Shown: positions 3,392-24,908 of the stretch, piece by piece
Layout: the number at the start of each line of letters is the position of its first letter
How positions within the stretch are numbered: position 1 is the first letter of the stretch
Source: an uncultured Phocaeicola sp.
Lineage (GTDB): Bacteria > Bacteroidota > Bacteroidia > Bacteroidales > Bacteroidaceae
Assembly (NCBI GenBank): GCA_947626525.1
Contig: CANQSM010000004.1
Location: 3,080 to 67,079 of the forward strand
Direction: 5' to 3'
DNA length: 64,000 bases
Notes under the pieces: generated by a model
Seen by the model: only the letters and a program-made list of their open reading frames with translations
Database searches by the model: none
What the model was told of the DNA's origin: nothing
Made by a program: the position numbers and the translations under genes

Positions 3392-3907
3392 ATGAAAAAG
3401 TTATTTATGATGATGTGTTTATGCGCAATGGCAGTATGCGCCAATGCACAGAAAGTTACTGTATGGTATGGTGCTAATATGGCTAAAGTCTCTGGTGATG
3501 CGGACATTGATTCTGAGTTTAAGTTCTTGAACCTTGGCGTTACTTATACAGCTCCTATTGCCAATCAGTTCGATTGGTCTGTAGGCGCGGCTTATGTAAC
3601 TAAAGGTGGTAAAGAATGGGATCCTTCATTGATTCAGCTTGATGTCAATGCTCATTATAATTTCTTGGCTGATGACGATGTGAAAGTTGGTGTTTTGGCC
3701 GGCCCGTATATCGGTTATACGATTAATGATGATGATATGGAAGATATGAAGAAATTAGACTACGGTATCGGCGTAGGTGTACAGGGTATGTACAAGCAGT
3801 TCTCATTGAAAGTTGGCTATGAATTTGGCTTGGCTAATTTTGTGGATGTAAGTGGTGCATCTGCTAAAATGAACGGTTTATATTTCCGTTTGGGATATAG
3901 CTTCTAA
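3392..3907 (+). CDS. small outer-membrane beta-barrel (porin-family) protein
   Basis: 171 aa with a signal peptide ending ANAQ, alternating beta-strand pattern, and a C-terminal LGYSF ending in Phe, as in OMP beta-signals. Confidence 0.8.
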   Translation: MKKLFMMMCLCAMAVCANAQKVTVWYGANMAKVSGDADIDSEFKFLNLGVTYTAPIANQFDWSVGAAYVTKGGKEWDPSLIQLDVNAHYNFLADDDVKVGVLAGPYIGYTINDDDMEDMKKLDYGIGVGVQGMYKQFSLKVGYEFGLANFVDVSGASAKMNGLYFRLGYSF

Positions 3908-15954: not shown

Positions 15955-18900
15955 CTATTCTTCAGTTACACGTGTTTTGTATAAGGTGTACAGTTCGTTG
16001 AACTTTTTACTGTAATGCTCTGCCATACCCGACTTGCTCTGTCCGGTTGCCAGACTCTTGTTGGTTTCATCCAACAAATAGAGATGATACATACACTCTT
16101 CCAGATTTTCTCTTAGTCTGTTGTCGTTGAGATTCAGATACCAAGTAATGTATTCAACGGATTTATTGGCTATCGCATCCAATATCTTTTCTGCTTTGGC
16201 TGTTTCTCCCAGTTGCATGTAGGCTTTGGCCAATGTCATCGAACCGCTTTGGAAATCATGTGGCACCGTTTCGTTCGGAATCACCTGTTCGCAATAGTCG
16301 AGTGCCTTTAGTGCTTTCTCTTTCTTGCCTTCTTTCAACAGTTGGGTAATCAGCTGGCCAAACATGCGACGATGGGTATAGCACATGCGGGTAATGGTTT
16401 CATCGAGGTAAATATCCGGATTTTCAATGCCGCCGAACTTGAACTTATGCATCATGTTGTCGTACATTTTGTCCGTGTCGATGGCATATCCGTCGCGCAC
16501 ATTCTGCCCGTATCCCAGTTGCTGGAAGTTGAATGGAGTAATGCGGTAAGCCAACCCCTCTTGCAGGAAGAAAGGAGCCAGTCCCAGATGATTGTCTTCA
16601 CCTACTGTGGTAGCCATATAGATAGGACGCTCCCAGTTGGTGTTTGCCAACATCTCAAGCATCATCAGTTCATTTTTGTACAGTGCGCGTTTTTTCAAAG
16701 GAATCACCATCTTGTCGGGGATACTGTCTTTTAATGTGTCGGGAATCATCATGCCCGAACGTTCGATAGCCTCCTTATCCAGCGTGATGTACACCGTATC
16801 GGTAGGGATGAGGTGCAAATCTTCGTTCTTTGCCCGTACCCAATATTTCAGGATGTTCTTCAGTTCGAACGGTTCGTCGCCGAAGCTCTCTTTGGCGGCT
16901 TCCGGATTACGGACATACAGGTTGAGCACCTGTGCTTTGGCTTCTGGACGAATGGGAATGTATTCATTGGTTCCGGCTACGAACTCGATGCGGTCCCAGA
17001 GGATGGGTACTGATGGGGAATCATAGGCCGGACGACGCATTTGGTCGATGTACCAGTCGGTTTGCAGGTAACTGAGATTGCATACGCGTACGTCCGTACG
17101 GAATCCTTCCGTTTCCTGATTATACCAGAGCGGGAACGTGTCATTGTCTCCATTGGTGTAGATAATGGGTTTGCCTTCTTCCTGCACGCTCATCAGATAA
17201 TTTTGTCCAAAATCGCGGCAAGTGTAGCGTCCGCTACGGTCGTGGTCGTCCCACGTTTGGCTGGCCATCTGTATCGGGATACAGAGACAAAGCGCCGTTG
17301 CCAAGGTCGCGGCAGGCATACCGGATATTTTTTTGCGTAACAATTGCACGATGCCGGCCACGCCCATACCTATCCAGATGGCAAAAGCATAGAAGGAACC
17401 AGCATAAGCGTAATCCCGTTCACGTGGCTGCGCCGGTGTCTGGTTCAGATAGAGCACGATGGCGATACCTGTCATGAAGAACAGAAAAAATACTATCCAG
17501 AATTGCTGGATACCTCGGTTCCCCTTGTAGGCTTGCCAAAAGAGCCCGATGAGTCCGAGCAATAAAGGCAGACAGAAAAATACGTTATGCCCTTTGTTGT
17601 TCTTCAGGTCGGACGGGAGAAGTGTCTGGTCTCCCAATATCCGGTTGTCGATAAAAGGAATACCGGTTATCCAGTTGCCTTTCGTTGTTTCTCCATTTCC
17701 TTGTATGTCGTTTTGCCGTCCGGCGAAATTCCACATAAAGTAGCGCCAATACATGTAATTCAGCTGATAAGTGAAGAAGAATTTGATGTTGTCCCATTGG
17801 GTGGGCATTTTCACCATGACGGTGTTGCCACACTCATCGTAAGGTACTTGGTAACCTTCTATGCCTCCCAGCCACTCTTCGTACTGGTTGGCATGCTGGT
17901 CGCTGTGCATACGGGGGAAGAGCATATTTTGTGCGTAAACGTAATCGACTTTATGGCGGACGATTTCATAGCTGTCCTTCTCGTCCGGTGTGGCTTTCTC
18001 CTTGCGTTGGTATACCGGAGCGCCTTCTACCGCTACCGGCACACAATAGTTTCCTTCCGGTTTCAGTTTGATTTTGGAGGAATAGGCTTGTCCGTAGAAA
18101 AGCGGACGGGTACCGTATTGCTCACGTCCCAAATAATCGCCCAGTGTGAAGATGTCCTCCGGAGAGTTCTGATCCATCGGCGTGTTGGCGGTAGAACGGA
18201 TGACGATCAGTGCGTAGGAAGAGTACCCTACCATAATCATCATGATGCAAAGCAAAGAGGTATTCAGCGTACGTGCGCTTACCATGAACTTCTTGCCGAA
18301 TTTGCCGAACAGATAAAGCGACAGGAGGGCCAGTATGATAAGCCCTATGATAATGCTCCCCGTTCCGTGTCCATAGAAGGGGATACCCAGCAAGGCTATC
18401 GTGGCAACGAAAGCGATGTTCATCCGCTTACGGCTTTTTTCGGTATAGCTTTCGTGCACACCCCAGATAATGGAAGCAGTCAGCAGGATGATGTAAACGA
18501 TGACGCCGGTGTTGAACGGCATGCCGAGGCTATTGACAAACAGTAGCTCGAACCATCCGCCCACTTTTACAGCTCCCGGCACAATACCGTAGAGCACGGC
18601 GGCAACCAATATCATGGAACCGAGCAAGGCAAGTAACGAACCTTTCAGATTGGCGTTCGGATTCTTTTTATAGTAGTATACCAATACGATGGCCGGGATA
18701 CACAGCAGGTTGAGCAGATGTACGCCGATAGAGAGCCCTGTCAGGTAAGCAATCAGTACCAGCCAGCGGTCGCTGTGCGGCTCATCGGCTACGTCTTCCC
18801 ATTTAAGAATCAGCCAGAACACGATGGCTGTGAACAGGGAGGAATAGGCGTAGACTTCGCCTTCCACTGCACTGAACCAGAATGTGTCGCTGAATGTGTA

Positions 18901-19290
18901 AGCCAATGCGCCCACCAGCCCGGAGCCCATAATGGTAATCAGCTTGGCGGTGTTCATCCGTTCCATGTCCGGACAAACCAATTTGCGTACCAAATGCGTG
19001 ATGGTCCAAAAGAGGAAAAGGATACATCCTGCGCTCAGCAAGGCCGACATGGTGTTAACCATACGTGCCACTTGGTCCGGGTCGCTGACAAATTGTGAGA
19101 ACAAATTGGCGGTCAGCATGAAGAACGGTGCGCCGGGCGGGTGTCCGACTTCCAATTTATATCCGGTAGTAATAAACTCGGGGCAATCCCAGAAACTTGC
19201 GGTTGGTTCAATGGTCATGCAATAGACTATGGCTGCAATAAGAAAAGTAAACCAACCCATCAGGTTGTTGACTGTTTGGTATGTTTTCAT
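15955..19290 (-). CDS. large multi-pass membrane protein, DUF2723 / glycosyltransferase-like
   Basis: About 1111 aa with many TM helices, the N-terminal motif EPTASFWDCPEF, and C-terminal TPR-like helices. Start chosen at MKTYQTVNNLMGW. Confidence 0.8.
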   Translation of the reverse strand: MKTYQTVNNLMGWFTFLIAAIVYCMTIEPTASFWDCPEFITTGYKLEVGHPPGAPFFMLTANLFSQFVSDPDQVARMVNTMSALLSAGCILFLFWTITHLVRKLVCPDMERMNTAKLITIMGSGLVGALAYTFSDTFWFSAVEGEVYAYSSLFTAIVFWLILKWEDVADEPHSDRWLVLIAYLTGLSIGVHLLNLLCIPAIVLVYYYKKNPNANLKGSLLALLGSMILVAAVLYGIVPGAVKVGGWFELLFVNSLGMPFNTGVIVYIILLTASIIWGVHESYTEKSRKRMNIAFVATIALLGIPFYGHGTGSIIIGLIILALLSLYLFGKFGKKFMVSARTLNTSLLCIMMIMVGYSSYALIVIRSTANTPMDQNSPEDIFTLGDYLGREQYGTRPLFYGQAYSSKIKLKPEGNYCVPVAVEGAPVYQRKEKATPDEKDSYEIVRHKVDYVYAQNMLFPRMHSDQHANQYEEWLGGIEGYQVPYDECGNTVMVKMPTQWDNIKFFFTYQLNYMYWRYFMWNFAGRQNDIQGNGETTKGNWITGIPFIDNRILGDQTLLPSDLKNNKGHNVFFCLPLLLGLIGLFWQAYKGNRGIQQFWIVFFLFFMTGIAIVLYLNQTPAQPRERDYAYAGSFYAFAIWIGMGVAGIVQLLRKKISGMPAATLATALCLCIPIQMASQTWDDHDRSGRYTCRDFGQNYLMSVQEEGKPIIYTNGDNDTFPLWYNQETEGFRTDVRVCNLSYLQTDWYIDQMRRPAYDSPSVPILWDRIEFVAGTNEYIPIRPEAKAQVLNLYVRNPEAAKESFGDEPFELKNILKYWVRAKNEDLHLIPTDTVYITLDKEAIERSGMMIPDTLKDSIPDKMVIPLKKRALYKNELMMLEMLANTNWERPIYMATTVGEDNHLGLAPFFLQEGLAYRITPFNFQQLGYGQNVRDGYAIDTDKMYDNMMHKFKFGGIENPDIYLDETITRMCYTHRRMFGQLITQLLKEGKKEKALKALDYCEQVIPNETVPHDFQSGSMTLAKAYMQLGETAKAEKILDAIANKSVEYITWYLNLNDNRLRENLEECMYHLYLLDETNKSLATGQSKSGMAEHYSKKFNELYTLYKTRVTEE

Positions 19291-19324
19291 GAACGAATAA
19301 AGTTTCATTAACACTAACTAGTCG

Positions 19325-19767: not shown

Positions 19768-20979
19768 ATGACATCAATCAAATTAAAATTCAGAGCGCAT
19801 ACGGATAGCAAGAAAGAGGGGGCGTTGTATTTTCGAGTCATACACGACCGGGTAGTCAAGCAGGTTAAGACTGGCTATCGCATATTTGAATATGAGTGGG
19901 ATAAGCAACGTGGCGAGATTGTTAAAGAGTTTCCGCTATCGGCGGCACGAAACGAGGCATTGAAGATTCTCCGCGACAAGGTTTTGTGGGAGCAAAGGAA
20001 GTTGGGACAAATTGTCAAATCTTTTGAGAATATTGGCAAGCCATATACAGCCGGTGACATAATCCACCGCTACAAAGAATCAGCATCGGACAAAACGACC
20101 GTCTTTGAGTATATACATCATCAGTCGGAACGAATGAGGAAACTCGGCAGAGTGCGTACTAGCGAAACTTATCAGCAGACATTGCATAGTTTTATGCGGT
20201 TCCGCAAGGGTGTCGGTTTATATTTCGATATGCTCGATGCCGATATGGTCGAGCAATATGAGAGTTATATGCGGGCGAAGTGTTTGAGCCGTAATACGAC
20301 CTCCTTTTATATGCGGATTCTTCGATGTATTTATAACCGAGCTGTCGAAGATGGCCTTGTCCAGCAAAGCAATCCGTTCAAACGGGTTTATACCGGTGTA
20401 GATAAAACAGCCAAACGGGCCATATCGCTCAAAGAGATTAAGCGGATTAAGGAATTAGACCTTGCGAATAAACCAGATTTAGATTTCGCCCGCGATCTGT
20501 TTTTATTCTCGTTTTATCTTCGCGGCATGTCGTTCATCGACCTTGCCTATCTGCGCAAGAAAGACCTTGCGAACGGTTACGTTAACTATATCCGCAAAAA
20601 GACCGGGCAGCAACTTACGATTCGCTGGGAGCGGTCGATGCAGGAGATTATCGACAAATATCCTGAAAATCCGACACAGTGTCTGCTGCCAATCATCACG
20701 AAGCAGGACGGTATGGAGCGCAGACAGTATTTGAACAAGATTCTGTTTGTCAATCGGAAGTTGAAACTAATCGCCCGACAGGCGAAAATTTTCACGCCGC
20801 TGACGATGTATGTCAGCCGTCATAGTTGGGCAAGCATCGCCAAGTCGAAAAATGTTCCGTTAAGTGTCATCAGCGAGGGCATGGGACACGACAACGAAGA
20901 GACCACGCGCATCTATCTCGCCTCGATACATACCAACCAAATAGACGAAGCCAACAGTCGAATATTGAATGAATTATAG
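19768..20979 (+). CDS. tyrosine-type site-specific recombinase (integrase or DNA invertase)
   Basis: 403 aa. The N-terminal region resembles the arm-binding domain of Bacteroides integrases. The C-terminal catalytic signature is SRHSWAS...GMGHDNEETTRIYL (R, H-x-x-R, H, Y). Confidence 0.9.
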   Translation: MTSIKLKFRAHTDSKKEGALYFRVIHDRVVKQVKTGYRIFEYEWDKQRGEIVKEFPLSAARNEALKILRDKVLWEQRKLGQIVKSFENIGKPYTAGDIIHRYKESASDKTTVFEYIHHQSERMRKLGRVRTSETYQQTLHSFMRFRKGVGLYFDMLDADMVEQYESYMRAKCLSRNTTSFYMRILRCIYNRAVEDGLVQQSNPFKRVYTGVDKTAKRAISLKEIKRIKELDLANKPDLDFARDLFLFSFYLRGMSFIDLAYLRKKDLANGYVNYIRKKTGQQLTIRWERSMQEIIDKYPENPTQCLLPIITKQDGMERRQYLNKILFVNRKLKLIARQAKIFTPLTMYVSRHSWASIAKSKNVPLSVISEGMGHDNEETTRIYLASIHTNQIDEANSRILNEL

Positions 20980-21005
20980 AGGAAAATCTGTTCGGAATAA
21001 TCGCG

Positions 21006-21028
21006 CTATCTCTCCGTAAGAGATAGTC
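21006..21028. repeat. IR-L of the invertible segment (ctatctct-ccgta-agagatag-tc)
   Basis: Exact reverse complement of 21313-21335. It is internally palindromic, with 8-bp arms and a 5-nt asymmetric core. Confidence 0.95.
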
Positions 21029-21040
21029 ATATTGCGTGGG

Positions 21041-21072
21041 CAAATGTAATATGTTTAGTTCAGACCGCCAAA
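21041..21072 (-). promoter_or_regulatory. consensus Bacteroides promoter (TTTG-N20-TAcaTTTG) on the minus strand, firing leftward out of IR-L
   Basis: The minus strand reads gtaTTTGgcggtctgaactaaacatatTAcaTTTGcccacgcaatat, then IR-L. The -33 element is at 21072-21069 and the -7 box at 21048-21041. Confidence 0.65.
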
Positions 21073-21312
21073 TACTTTTTTAATTTTTTTCTCGCTTTTC
21101 TCATTTTTATCTCTGGGCGGGATTTTCCGGCGATTCGACGGTTCGCTATCTTTCCTGAGCAGGAGGCCTTCTTCTGCATAGCTGGCTGGCAACACGAAAG
21201 ACCACGCCGTTGGAAAAACAAGGCCGCATAGGCGAAAAATGATAAAAAAAACGATGCGATGGATTCTTGAATACCATTCAACAATTTGATAATCAATAGT
21301 TTTGAAATTTGC

Positions 21313-21335
21313 GACTATCTCTTACGGAGAGATAG
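21313..21335. repeat. IR-R of the invertible segment (ga-ctatctct-tacgg-agagatag)
   Basis: Exact reverse complement of 21006-21028. Confidence 0.95.
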
Positions 21336-21530: not shown

Positions 21531-24500
21531 ATGTTAAACAAATTTAAAAAGTTTATGGCGATATTCTCTGTATTGGGATTTATCGCATTGGGTGTCGGAT
21601 GCTCGGACTATGACGACGACATCGATGGTTTGCAAACGCAAATAGACGAGTTGAAAACGGGAAGCATTGCGAGCATAGAATCGCAGTTGACTTCTTTGTC
21701 TACAACAGTCGGCAATTTGCAATCTGCGCAGCAAACGCTTCAATCGGGTTTGTCGAACTTGCAGTCGGATTTATCGAGTTTGCAGTCGGACGTGAACAAC
21801 CTTGAAAGCGTGAAAAGCGAAGTAGAGTCTCTTAAGACAAAAATTGAGGAGATAGAGTCTACGTTCGTTTCGAAGGATTTCTTGACGACCACTTTGTCGT
21901 CTTATGCTACGACCGAGTCGGTAGCCGAAACGGCTGAAGAACTGCGGAAAGCCGTGAACGATGCTAAGACGGAGTTGCAGGCAGCGATAGCCGCTGCTCA
22001 GACTGCTGCTGATAAGGTTGCAGAAGAGAAGGTGGCTGAACTTGAAACAAAGATTTCGGAGTTGCAGGCAGCGATAGCCGCTGCTCAGACTGCTGCTGTG
22101 AAATCTGCGGGTGAGGCTTGCGCTGCTGCTTTCCAAGGGAAGTTTGATGCAGCCGTATCGGCGGCCAAACTCGTTGACAATGAGAATCTGTCAAATGCCA
22201 TTAAGGATTACGATGCCAAAATCAAAGAGTACATTACTTCGGCTATTAACGATAACAATGGTGTAATCGACGGGAAGATAAGCGAACAGATTAAGTCCGC
22301 TGTAGGAAGCTTGCAGAAACTGATTGTAGGCCGTCTGACGAGCTTGAAGCTGATTCCCGATGCCTATGAGAACGGTATCGAAACCATTGAGCTGAACGCT
22401 CTAACCTATACGGAATGGAAAAACGTGGCTGCTGCTACGGCAAGGACGGAGACTACCCCGACACAAACAGGAGGCAACCATATAACTTCTGCTGCGGATA
22501 AAGTGAAAACGGTCAAGTATCATGTAAGCCCTGCCAACGTTACGACGGAGGGTATCGGTGCCGTAAAATTCTGGTTGCAGACCGCTTCCGACAAGGATAC
22601 TCGTGCCGCTGCTGTTAAAGCCGAAGACCTGTTTGAGATAACTGGTTTTGCGGTAAACACTACAACAGACGGTCTGAAGACTTTGGATGTCGATTTGAAG
22701 AAAAAGTTGGGAGCCAATTTGTCGGCTGGCGCAGGGAAAATTTACACTGTTGCCTTGGAAGCTACTATCGCCGATGATTTGTGTGTTGATGGAGAGACAG
22801 GAGCCAAGGTTTATTCGGACTATGCCAAATTGAGTGAAAACGTGATTACGCCGGAAATCGCACAATTGACAAAGGATAGCGAAGGCAAATATGCGTTCGG
22901 TTCTGGGCATCTGCATTTCGCAAAAACGTATGACGATGCGAAAATGAGTCCTACCGCTGTAATTCAGGCTCTGTACAACGAACCTCTCGATATGCTTGCT
23001 TTCACCGACGCTTCCTACAACTACGGCGCTCACCCTGGCTGTAAGGAATTCTCGAAAGAGGCTTGCGAGAATGTAGGATTGTATTTCGAATACAATGTGG
23101 TAGGAGAACCGTGGTTAGTAGGTTCTACTAATACAGATCAACAAATGCATGCCAAGGTCAGCGATGGCCATTTCCTGATTGCACAGGCTCCTGCCGCAGG
23201 CGGTACCTTTGCAGAGAGATCCGAAACGGCTATCGGCAAGACCCCGGTAGTTCGTGTATTGCTCCGCGACAGCAGGAATAACAACGCCGTTGTAGATGTC
23301 AAGTATTTCCGCGTTGAGTGGGTATCCAAAGATGTGGAAGATAAGAAATTAGGCGTGGTTAAGACGTTCGATTACACACTTGATTGCGACGGATTCAACA
23401 CTAATAACGTCTTTACGTGGGAGGATATGTCGCGTATGGTACTGACACAAATCGGTGAGAACGGTATTTCAAGAGACGATTTCGTGAATCTCTATAAAGC
23501 CCCGGTTATCGAGACAGAAGATAAGGTACATTACTGGGATAAGGAGGTTGTTTGTCCATTGAATAATGATCGTGTTGTAGGAAGTGTAGGAACTGCATAT
23601 AGAAGCGTAACAGACGATGATGAAGTAGCCGGAACGCAACCTGTAGAATTGGTTTACAATTATGGAGGCGTGTCACCCGAGGATGGCGTATTCACATGGT
23701 ATCTGACAGCTCACCAGATCGGTTCGATTATGCACGAGGCCGAATATACAGACCATGGCATATGGGTATGGCCGGGTACTCCTGTTAAACGTACTGTTAC
23801 TATTACCTGCGAATCAAGGAACAAACATCAGCGCGGTGATGTCACTTTCCAATTCGAAGTACTTATCAAATTGCCGAAAGAGCCGTTCGTATCCCCGATG
23901 GAAGGCCGTTCATGGAAAGATGGTAACAATTTCGATGAAATACGGTTTACGCCGGTTATCCTCGGAACAGTGAACCGCGGGGGTGCAACAGTTGTATCGG
24001 GAGATAGTCCGGTTTACGATTGGGATGTACAGAATTCGTTCAAGGATGTTGATGCTGCAGCAAATGGCGGTCAAATTGTCGGCGATCCGAACAAATACGA
24101 TTGCTTCTGTTGGGATATCCAATTCTGCCACAAGCAGCCGAACGCTTACTATGTATACGCTAATCCTGATAATACTCAACGGTTTGCAGTAGATAATTCG
24201 CAAAAAGGATATGAGTTGTTAACCAAATCAAATGGTAGGGTAGCCGCTAAATTCGATTACGATGCGGCCATGGGCGACCGCTGGTACAGGGCAGATGCCG
24301 ATGCTACAGCTAAGATTCACCTGACGATTGATCATACAGATGAAGGTGTCGCCATGGTTGAAAATGAACATAAGATGAATGTGGACGTTTGGTCGAGAAT
24401 CAACAAGTACAATTACCATCTTGTCAAAGACTTTGCGGTACAGGTTGTGAAACCGTTGACCATCAATCCGGAGACAGTCGACGGATTCGAGGACGGTTAC

Positions 24501-24908
24501 ATGGGAACGCAGACTTTGGAAATTGCCAAGGCTGTAACCATGACGGATTTCATGGGCTGGACTGTTTCCTATTCAGGTATCAGAATTCCGAATAATCCGA
24601 ATTATACACAGGCAGATCTCTTCGAATACTACAAGATCTCATCGATGAAATTCGATTTGGCCAACGCTTATGTAGATATAGCCGGGAGGCCGTCGGTTGA
24701 CGAATACTTCGGTGCCGATGCTCTCCAACTGGTAACGGATAACACAACTGTCAGTGGCTGCACTCTTACGAATCTGACTTACGACAAAAAGAAGAGCGAC
24801 CTGCAGACTACAACGGTTTACATCGTAATCGATGTTACGGTTAAACACTACTGGGGCACGGCAAAGGCAACGGTTCGTATCCCTGTTAACCCAGGACGTG
24901 CTGCATAG
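21531..24908 (+). CDS. large predicted surface lipoprotein: coiled-coil N-terminal stalk plus an uncharacterised C-terminal region
   Basis: Start placed at MLNKFKKFMAIFSVLGFIALGVGC (lipobox), with CSDYDDD after the Cys. Heptad-repeat region spans about residues 30-250. About 850 further residues contain no motif I recognise. 1125 aa in total. Confidence 0.85.
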   Translation: MLNKFKKFMAIFSVLGFIALGVGCSDYDDDIDGLQTQIDELKTGSIASIESQLTSLSTTVGNLQSAQQTLQSGLSNLQSDLSSLQSDVNNLESVKSEVESLKTKIEEIESTFVSKDFLTTTLSSYATTESVAETAEELRKAVNDAKTELQAAIAAAQTAADKVAEEKVAELETKISELQAAIAAAQTAAVKSAGEACAAAFQGKFDAAVSAAKLVDNENLSNAIKDYDAKIKEYITSAINDNNGVIDGKISEQIKSAVGSLQKLIVGRLTSLKLIPDAYENGIETIELNALTYTEWKNVAAATARTETTPTQTGGNHITSAADKVKTVKYHVSPANVTTEGIGAVKFWLQTASDKDTRAAAVKAEDLFEITGFAVNTTTDGLKTLDVDLKKKLGANLSAGAGKIYTVALEATIADDLCVDGETGAKVYSDYAKLSENVITPEIAQLTKDSEGKYAFGSGHLHFAKTYDDAKMSPTAVIQALYNEPLDMLAFTDASYNYGAHPGCKEFSKEACENVGLYFEYNVVGEPWLVGSTNTDQQMHAKVSDGHFLIAQAPAAGGTFAERSETAIGKTPVVRVLLRDSRNNNAVVDVKYFRVEWVSKDVEDKKLGVVKTFDYTLDCDGFNTNNVFTWEDMSRMVLTQIGENGISRDDFVNLYKAPVIETEDKVHYWDKEVVCPLNNDRVVGSVGTAYRSVTDDDEVAGTQPVELVYNYGGVSPEDGVFTWYLTAHQIGSIMHEAEYTDHGIWVWPGTPVKRTVTITCESRNKHQRGDVTFQFEVLIKLPKEPFVSPMEGRSWKDGNNFDEIRFTPVILGTVNRGGATVVSGDSPVYDWDVQNSFKDVDAAANGGQIVGDPNKYDCFCWDIQFCHKQPNAYYVYANPDNTQRFAVDNSQKGYELLTKSNGRVAAKFDYDAAMGDRWYRADADATAKIHLTIDHTDEGVAMVENEHKMNVDVWSRINKYNYHLVKDFAVQVVKPLTINPETVDGFEDGYMGTQTLEIAKAVTMTDFMGWTVSYSGIRIPNNPNYTQADLFEYYKISSMKFDLANAYVDIAGRPSVDEYFGADALQLVTDNTTVSGCTLTNLTYDKKKSDLQTTTVYIVIDVTVKHYWGTAKATVRIPVNPGRAA
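21970..22098 (+). repeat. perfect 42-bp direct repeat (21970-22011 and 22057-22098), 87-bp period, in frame inside the lipoprotein gene
   Basis: cggagttgcaggcagcgatagccgctgctcagactgctgctg occurs twice and encodes ELQAAIAAAQTAA both times. Confidence 0.95.

Follow-up and report, generated by a model that had tools for sequence, protein, structure and literature searches.

Nested palindromes flanking an invertible promoter segment as probable core sites of a tyrosine recombinase switch in an uncultured gut Bacteroidales

A 64,000-nt stretch of contig CANQSM010000004.1 from an uncultured Phocaeicola sp. (the window, by which we mean this whole stretch) carries two 23-bp inverted repeats between a gene for a tyrosine recombinase and a gene for a large predicted lipoprotein. 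What purpose do these repeats serve? An initial annotation of the window had taken them for recombination sites of lox/FRT-like geometry, through which the neighbouring recombinase would invert the segment that lies between them. We find that the segment does occur in both orientations, and consider it very likely that the repeats serve as core recombination sites in a promoter inversion switch, driven by the tyrosine recombinase that is encoded immediately upstream.

Direct reading and a repeat finder agree on the architecture of the two sites, neither of which is assigned a strand. The left site, IR-L (21006..21028; CTATCTCTCCGTAAGAGATAGTC), is composed of an outer arm CTATCTCT (21006-21013), the spacer CCGTA (21014-21018) and an inner arm AGAGATAG (21019-21026), followed by TC (21027-21028). 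The right site, IR-R (21313..21335; GACTATCTCTTACGGAGAGATAG), begins with GA (21313-21314) and continues with an inner arm CTATCTCT (21315-21322), the spacer TACGG (21323-21327) and an outer arm AGAGATAG (21328-21335). The two sites, of 23 nt each, are 100% complementary to one another with 284 nt between them, and the 8-nt arms within each site are exact reverse complements, with the extra TC or GA on the inner side. This is the nesting described earlier, 8-bp inverted arms around a 5-nt spacer. A lone palindrome of the form 8-N5-8 is expected by chance about once per 64 kb (4^-8 per position); two copies placed 309 nt apart, with reverse-complemented spacers, are beyond chance expectation. 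A search of the 64 kb for CTATCTCT-N5-AGAGATAG with ≤3 mismatches returned two matches, the two sites themselves, against 0.17 expected from shuffles, and the half-site 8-mer CTATCTCT occurs four times in the window, every time within the two sites. The motif is, thus, absent from the rest of the window, as had been claimed, and the idea that the site is dedicated to this switch holds on the scale of the window and no wider. A possible third, degenerate site midway along the segment (21146, CTATCTTTCCTGAGCAGGAGG) was rejected, having 6 mismatches in its 16 arm positions, a quality equalled by 87 matches in the window.

The inverted orientation of the sites predicts inversion of the segment between them. 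The genome and metagenome contig collections that were scanned did not include the window's species, and its other state came from exact-protein look-ups. These gave six contigs, all from other samples, whose recombinase is 99% identical; the comparison of orientations is one of assemblies from different samples, not of reads within one sample. In three contigs (L163, L164 and L165) the 284-nt segment (21029..21312, no strand assigned) is the reverse complement of that in the window (98% identity as reverse complement, 62% forward), and the window's orientation is found in L167 and L168, where the recombinase is 99% identical, and in L001 and L002, where it is identical. In none of these contigs do the outer flanks change; the inner flanks trade places, and the 23-nt repeats stay identical throughout, which places the crossover inside the repeats. 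The switch, thus, occurs in both orientations in nature, inverting between the two sites as predicted. The junctions of the inverted molecules, read here from assembled contigs, locate the exchange to the 23-bp repeats and not more finely to the ccgta core. In one inverted contig (L164, around position 3762), 2 nt (gc) are missing at the inner edge of IR-L (AGAGATAGTC/aaattt versus AGAGATAGTC/gcaaattt); coverage of this contig is low (3.8x), and the loss may reflect either strain variation or faulty assembly.

The gene whose stop codon lies 26 nt before IR-L (19768..20979, plus strand) encodes a tyrosine recombinase (invertase) of 403 aa with N-terminal arm-binding, SAM-like core-binding and catalytic domains. 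The corresponding Pfam scores are 32 bits for Arm-DNA-bind_5 (cutoff 22.6), 78.9 for Phage_int_SAM_5 (PF13102) and 30.4 for Phage_integrase (PF00589; cutoff 27.1). An NCBIfam scan gave sub-threshold Xer matches only, hence no curated invertase name. BLASTP against the published invertases of the IP-ARG switches aligned the protein over its full length (~400 aa) at 45-47% identity (E 2e-129 to 4e-126). Residues 210-395 align to XerA (4a8e), and K278, R351, H374 and Y383 align with the XerA catalytic residues and are invariant in our family alignment (A1). In the XerA alignment S255 stands where the first catalytic Arg would be (R252 lies three residues before it), and Y348 stands in place of the first His. 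S255, R252 and Y348 are each invariant across the family alignment, which departs here from the Arg-Lys-His-Arg-His/Trp-Tyr canon. The pattern may resemble the non-canonical active site of IntDOT, which has serine at the first catalytic Arg position.

To see which features of the sites are conserved, we turned to 160 loci of related recombinases, drawn from reference genomes and metagenomes. In a motif-blind search for repeats, most of these relatives had an inverted repeat ~30 nt past the stop codon, centred on (A/T)CTCT-N5-AGAG(A/T). A motif-guided search, with ≤1 mismatch allowed in the 13-mer, found paired sites in 112 of 162 loci, which make up 88 distinct pairs; in the window this family core, CTCT-CCGTA-AGAG, occupies 21010-21022 of IR-L. 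Among the distinct pairs CTCT and AGAG are essentially invariant, and the three central spacer positions vary between loci with an entropy of ~1.8 bits, the first and last (s1 and s5) with about 1.0-1.2 bits (T at the first position in 69/88 pairs, A at the last in 63/88). Partner spacers are exact reverse complements in 88/88 distinct pairs, an identity that is weakly independent given the ≤1-mismatch selection. The six partner mismatches in total all fall at arm positions C1, C3, G2' and G4', and none at T2, T4, the spacer, A1' or A3', the absence of all six from the spacer having P ~0.05. Outside the 13-mer, partner identity falls to background, within ~2 nt outwards and within ~5-6 nt towards the segment. 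Judged from these comparisons, the free spacer with its obligatory partner match bears the signature of the strand-exchange (overlap) region; free sequence with obligatory partner identity is the hallmark of that region in tyrosine recombinases (PMC2817482).

How long might the overlap be? Mismatches are tolerated at C3 and G2' and never seen at T4, the spacer or A1', which suggests that the overlap does not exceed 7 bp. The cuts made by known tyrosine recombinases are 6-8 bp apart, and with a spacer of only 5 nt the cuts here would have to lie within the conserved arms, at the T and the A. Taking this 6-8 bp rule together with the positions that never differ between partners, the overlap is likely to be 6-7 bp, T-CCGTA-A in the window and T-N5-A in the family. 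Four loci with partner mismatches inside the 13-mer (L035, L106, L109 and L113) were each found in one state, and did not narrow the crossover. Elsewhere in the family, L133 and L134, two loci from human gut metagenomes, agree at 100% identity in their flanks and, in the segment, reach 100% identity only when one of the two is reverse-complemented, so the exchange is confined to tCTCTCTATAAGAGaa. Opposite states were also found in a Prevotella-type clade (L028 versus L032, L033 and L038) and between L110 and L132.

The main role of such a palindrome might be to fold into a hairpin (a stem-loop of the mRNA 5' leader, a cruciform or a terminator) and not to provide protein-binding half-sites. 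Indeed, the site folds into an 8-bp stem with a 5-nt loop (-8.6 kcal/mol, z = -4.1), and the transcript of the ON state would begin a few nt upstream and contain it. The family comparison, however, makes this explanation highly improbable: CTCT and AGAG are fixed in sequence across the 88 pairs, without compensatory changes, as expected of protein recognition. Moreover, no U-run follows the site and no terminator is called there, a sigma-70 style promoter and terminator scan found no match at the repeats, the site region has no credible Rfam match, and the inversion breakpoints coincide with the sites.

The arms themselves look like half-sites. The two arms within one site match each other beyond CTCT, which is informative because an inverted repeat requires only outer-outer and inner-inner matching; the score is 2.06 versus shuffled 1.54 (sd 0.11) for left sites and 2.48 versus shuffled 1.60 (sd 0.12) for right sites, although the compared loci are phylogenetically related and such covariation statistics, overstating independence, are indicative only. 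The half-site consensus also varies by recombinase clade. Among relatives of at least 65% identity, the window's clade, it reads GACTAACTCT, written as a 10-nt consensus GACTAWCTCT, with the window itself having GACTATCTCT; further out it becomes cgTCTCT in the 52-64% identity group and TCTCT beyond. The invariant CTCT/AGAG, the partner-matched spacers and the covariation of the arms with the clade together argue for two arms around an asymmetric exchange region, as had been proposed. Of the two marks of polarity suggested at the same time, the asymmetric and partner-matched spacer stands, and the inner TC/GA turns out to belong to the clade-wide half-site. Throughout the family, the half-site adjoining the recombinase gene (L-outer) differs consistently from its three counterparts, with cgCTAACTCT versus GACTAACTCT in the window's clade and aatCTCT versus cgtCTCT in the Prevotella-type clade; the window has cg at 21004-21005 versus tc/ga at 21027-21028 and 21313-21314. 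By analogy with fimS, a half-site weaker than the others could favour one direction or one order of strand exchange.

Is the neighbouring gene the one that acts on the sites? A master invertase encoded elsewhere could do so, with the neighbouring recombinase gene as a bystander, and distant or redundant action is documented for Tsr19/BF2766 and BVU2677/BVU2684. We think this very unlikely here. The distance between gene and site is nearly fixed, the L core starting 26-39 nt past the last recombinase codon in 72/112 loci, the half-site sequence follows the recombinase clade, and the published homologues share the gene-site arrangement.

The segment between the sites carries a promoter. A promoter search found a Bacteroidota-type promoter, P_L (TTTG-N20-TACATTTG(C); 21041..21072, minus strand), with a perfect -33 element and its -7 box at 21048-21041. 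Read from 21072 to 21041 and including the -7 box it is TTTG-N20-TACATTTGC, adjoining IR-L, with 18 nt from the end of the -7 box to the family core, and it is the only Bacteroidota-type promoter match within the switch region. A CTAAACA element abuts this -7 box (21053-21059, read on the minus strand). In the window P_L is directed towards the 3' end of the recombinase gene, and after inversion it is directed towards the lipoprotein gene. Since P_L matches the published 33-nt promoter format, the window state is probably OFF and the state in L163-L165 probably ON, with P_L facing the gene of the 1125-aa lipoprotein. In the family, the -7 box likewise faces the recombinase gene (OFF) in 90 loci and is ON in 5, its end lying 14-15 nt from the core in ~90% of loci.

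For the window's switch, however, the ON/OFF assignment is ambiguous, because a -7 box is present at both ends of the segment. The second one, P_R (TAGTTTTG; 21297..21304, plus strand), faces the lipoprotein gene in the window state and ends 14 nt from the R core, the family-typical distance; a -33 element at consensus spacing is absent. Instead of being switched on and off, the lipoprotein gene might have P_L and P_R, two different outward-facing promoters, placed before it in alternation, while whichever of them is not in front of it would fire antisense into the recombinase gene. Of the segments at the 112 loci, the window's alone has a -7 box at each end, at near-canonical distances of 14 and 18 nt from the cores, and its 284 nt are about twice the family mode of 150-170 nt. 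An AAACAA element lies ~78 nt upstream of P_R, as in relatives of the clade, both states are common among the assemblies (5 versus 3), and IP-ARG-2 switches with two different promoters have already been described (PMC8748976). But P_R lacks the -33 TTTG at consensus spacing and the upstream sequence conserved in the clade, and a stray TAnnTTTG has roughly a 25% chance of occurring in an AT-rich segment of 284 nt. On balance, we consider an exchange of promoters rather unlikely. Direct alignment of the window's segment with those of relatives, in either orientation, gave short low-scoring matches only, making segment homology unusable, and the imperfect inverted symmetry inside the segment is marginal (7/300 shuffles reach the observed score). 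The left ~125 nt of the segment may be an insertion into an ancestral module of ~160 nt.

The above results suggest how the switch would work. Each dyad would bind two recombinase monomers, one per half-site (CTATCTCT in the window, of which CTCT is the invariant part). The two sites would then synapse, looping out the 284-bp segment, and strands would be cleaved and exchanged at the borders of the central region. As the asymmetric CCGTA has its exact reverse complement at the partner site, the exchange regions would be matched only in the alignment that gives inversion, and inversion would re-orient the consensus promoter P_L.

Besides the selection behind the spacer identity and the relatedness of the loci, which were noted above, several points weigh against this scheme. 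The repeats are perfect over 23 bp, so that the crossover cannot be placed more finely within them, and the 5-nt spacer is, to our knowledge, shorter than any 6-8 bp overlap described. Related systems are known to include cross-acting recombinases (PMC12940148). With the arm-binding N-domain of the enzyme, extra sites or host factors may be needed. Finally, with -7 boxes at both ends of the segment, a simple ON/OFF reading may fail.

The arm-binding domain, in particular, raises the possibility that the enzyme is heterobivalent, like lambda Int or IntDOT. The dyads would then be necessary but not sufficient, the N-domain would bind additional arm-type sites within the segment or close to it, with a bending host factor as an aid to synapse; a synthetic site of 21-23 bp would not recombine. 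Besides the Pfam match to Arm-DNA-bind_5 above the cutoff, an AlphaFold model has a confident three-stranded sheet and long helix at residues 3-89 (predicted local distance difference test score, pLDDT, ~90), and IntDOT-type enzymes with such a domain use arm-type sites and IHF (PMC2817482). The segment length is tightly conserved in the family, at 150-200 nt, and about a third of the segments contain a conserved GCTAAACA or CCAAACA at 50-63 nt from the promoter-distal core. The stronger form of this element, (A)TTTGCTAAACA(A), lies at 49-63 nt from that core, always on the promoter strand, and was found in about 30/88 distinct segments (for example in L028, L032, L037, L041, L043, L053 and L061); the weaker form, CCAAACA, occurs in the window's clade (L003, L004, L083, L012 and L015), and the window itself has instead the CTAAACA next to the P_L -7 box. 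(A)TTTGCTAAACA(A) is a candidate accessory or arm-type binding site. In the window's own segment, however, no repeated arm-type motif was identified at the family position, and IntDOT depends little on arm sites for the order of strand exchange (PMC2817482). The best structural matches of the recombinase, though weak, are the Tn1549 and lambda integrases, but the model as a whole is mediocre (pLDDT 71; predicted template modelling score, pTM, 0.40) and the fold search gave no significant match (best E 7.7e-3). We regard such dependence on arm-type sites as possible, somewhat short of an even chance.

The freedom of the spacer may have a meaning of its own. Nine distinct tandem double switches were found, each behind one recombinase gene (L097, L114, L123, L130/L133, L135, L138, L140, L155 and L156), and in 9/9 the arms are shared and the spacers different, a result that agrees with a role of the spacer in partner choice but is expected by chance alone, as two random family spacers differ ~95% of the time. 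Two adjacent invertible regions behind one invertase have been reported, and the IP-ARG-2 class has shared arms with differing spacers (PMC8748976). We tentatively propose, with a little less than even confidence, that the 5-nt spacer is a freely evolvable address: each switch would have a spacer of its own, matched between partners, while the arms CTCT/AGAG stay constant, and the window's segment may also toggle two promoters. If so, one recombinase, or several paralogues in a genome, could operate several switches independently and free of cross-recombination, among them tandem switches with shared arms, and the probable 7-bp T-N5-A overlap would make this a natural counterpart of heterospecific lox sites. 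As side observations, the tandem switches of L135 differ only at spacer positions 2 and 3, and L129 has three sites with one common spacer, two direct and one inverted.

How does the window's switch relate to known systems? Invertible promoters with an adjacent tyrosine invertase in Bacteroidales are reportedly among the invertons found with PhaseFinder by Jiang et al. in 2019. The closest relatives are the IP-ARG switches. The published IP-ARG classes have sites shown by read mapping to invert, beside tyrosine invertases (PMC8748976). Supplementary Data 2 of the same work (Yan, Hall and Jiang 2022) gives the motifs TCTCT-CTTTA-AGAGA, ATCTCT-CTTTA-AGAGAT-GT, ATCTCT-CCGTA-AGAGAT-GT and TCTCC-TTCTA-GGAGA, all of which are dyads around a 5-nt spacer; the passages retrieved by term search list them without discussing arms, overlap or crossover (PMC8748976). 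The third of these, IR 2 of IP-ARG-2, is equal to the window's site over its central 17 nt, and IP-ARG-1, -2 and -3, whose invertases are the 45-47% identical ones, have the same promoter format, TTTG-N20-TAnnTTTGC (PMC8748976). As in the window, (A/T)CTCT-N5-AGAG(A/T) repeats lie directly 3' of the invertase gene and a promoter with TAnnTTTG and a -33 TTTG lies in the segment. The cargo differs, being a single large lipoprotein gene in the window and resistance or capsule genes in IP-ARG switches. Other differences are the longer segment (284 nt), in which there is another -7 box, the perfect 8-nt symmetry of the arms, and the host, an uncultured Bacteroidales lineage, where the context of an integrative and conjugative element was not seen.

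The S-layer switches of the BT1927 type in B. thetaiotaomicron and B. fragilis (Tsr26, BT1928 and BT1929) are similar in their adjacent tyrosine recombinase, their invertible promoter of ~256-300 bp and their large surface lipoprotein. Their sites, GTTAC-N7-GTAAC (PMC4611039), are also nested palindromes, but have 5-nt arms, a 7-nt spacer and a sequence unlike the window's. Mutation of one half-site locks the S-layer switch, and the sites of eight B. thetaiotaomicron loci have been called '17-nucleotide imperfect palindromes' (bioRxiv 10.1101/521070). The window's lipoprotein differs in matching no named family (Pfam, NCBIfam and PDB; compared with BT1927 by family searches only), and no gene for an OmpA-like partner follows it. 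The window's switch, thus, belongs to an already described family of switches, and nested-palindrome sites are already known in Bacteroides.

With Cre/loxP and Flp/FRT the window's sites share the inverted arms around an asymmetric spacer that sets polarity, the requirement that partner spacers match and the inversion between inverted sites; lox or FRT sites with different spacers are insulated from each other. There, however, arms of 13 bp flank a spacer of 8 bp, the corresponding lengths here being 8-10 nt and 5 nt. An arm-binding domain, moreover, is absent from Cre and Flp but present in the window's enzyme, and apart from the shared catalytic fold no further sequence relationship to them was detected. 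Of the lox/FRT-like geometry proposed at the outset, then, the inverted arms and the asymmetric, partner-matched spacer remain, but the arm and spacer lengths differ and the enzyme is not a two-domain one. The site geometry is analogous to that of lox and FRT, but outside that class.

In domain organization the enzyme is closer to IntDOT of CTnDOT and to lambda Int, which have the same three-domain architecture with an N-terminal arm-binding domain. The 7-bp overlap of IntDOT, in which conserved bases accompany a 5-bp variable segment, also resembles T-N5-A (PMC2817482). Those enzymes, however, integrate and excise mobile elements with the help of arm-type sites, IHF and Xis-like factors, whereas the window's enzyme would invert a chromosomal promoter between two near-identical core sites. 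In fimS of E. coli, FimB and FimE are local tyrosine recombinases that also invert a promoter segment, of ~300 bp, and half-sites flank a short repeat. That system differs in its 9-bp repeats, in its non-identical flanking half-sites, which give directional bias, and in its two-domain recombinases, which depend on IHF and Lrp.

These comparisons settle the identity of the repeats as recombination sites of a phase-variation switch for a large surface lipoprotein in an uncultured gut Bacteroidales. They leave the current understanding of tyrosine recombinase action unchanged, and provide a rule for the family: an invariant CTCT-N5-AGAG, a free spacer matched between partners, outer arm bases specific to the clade and a -7 box 14-15 nt from the core. 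The rule could be used to annotate such switches from sequence data only, to predict which sites recombine with each other, and to choose orthogonal pairs of sites and enzymes as genetic tools for Bacteroides.

The predicted lipoprotein gene downstream of the switch (21531..24908, plus strand) encodes 1125 aa, with a signal peptide ending in LGVGC and a coiled-coil N-terminal region, and searches of Pfam, NCBIfam and PDB gave no family match for the product. In L001 and L163 gene calling puts it in the same position, and in the window the genes after it are on the opposite strand. Its coiled-coil part contains a direct repeat of 59 nt (21970-22028 and 22057-22115; 86% identity, 87-nt period), which encodes a repeated TELQAAIAAAQTAA… unit. 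Elsewhere in the family the genes after the switches are diverse (L003-L162), and include fimbrial operons, UpxY/capsule genes, DNA methyltransferases, radical-SAM proteins and lipoproteins; the recombinase and its sites appear to form a portable phase-variation cassette. Putative defence genes, namely the DNA methyltransferases and genes for large helicase/PLD-like proteins, are found among this cargo. On the other side of the window's switch, a gene divergent from and upstream of that for the recombinase (15955-19314, minus strand) encodes a TMEM260-like protein O-mannosyltransferase of 1119 aa (PF11028, E 6e-80), and is syntenic in L001 and L163-L166.

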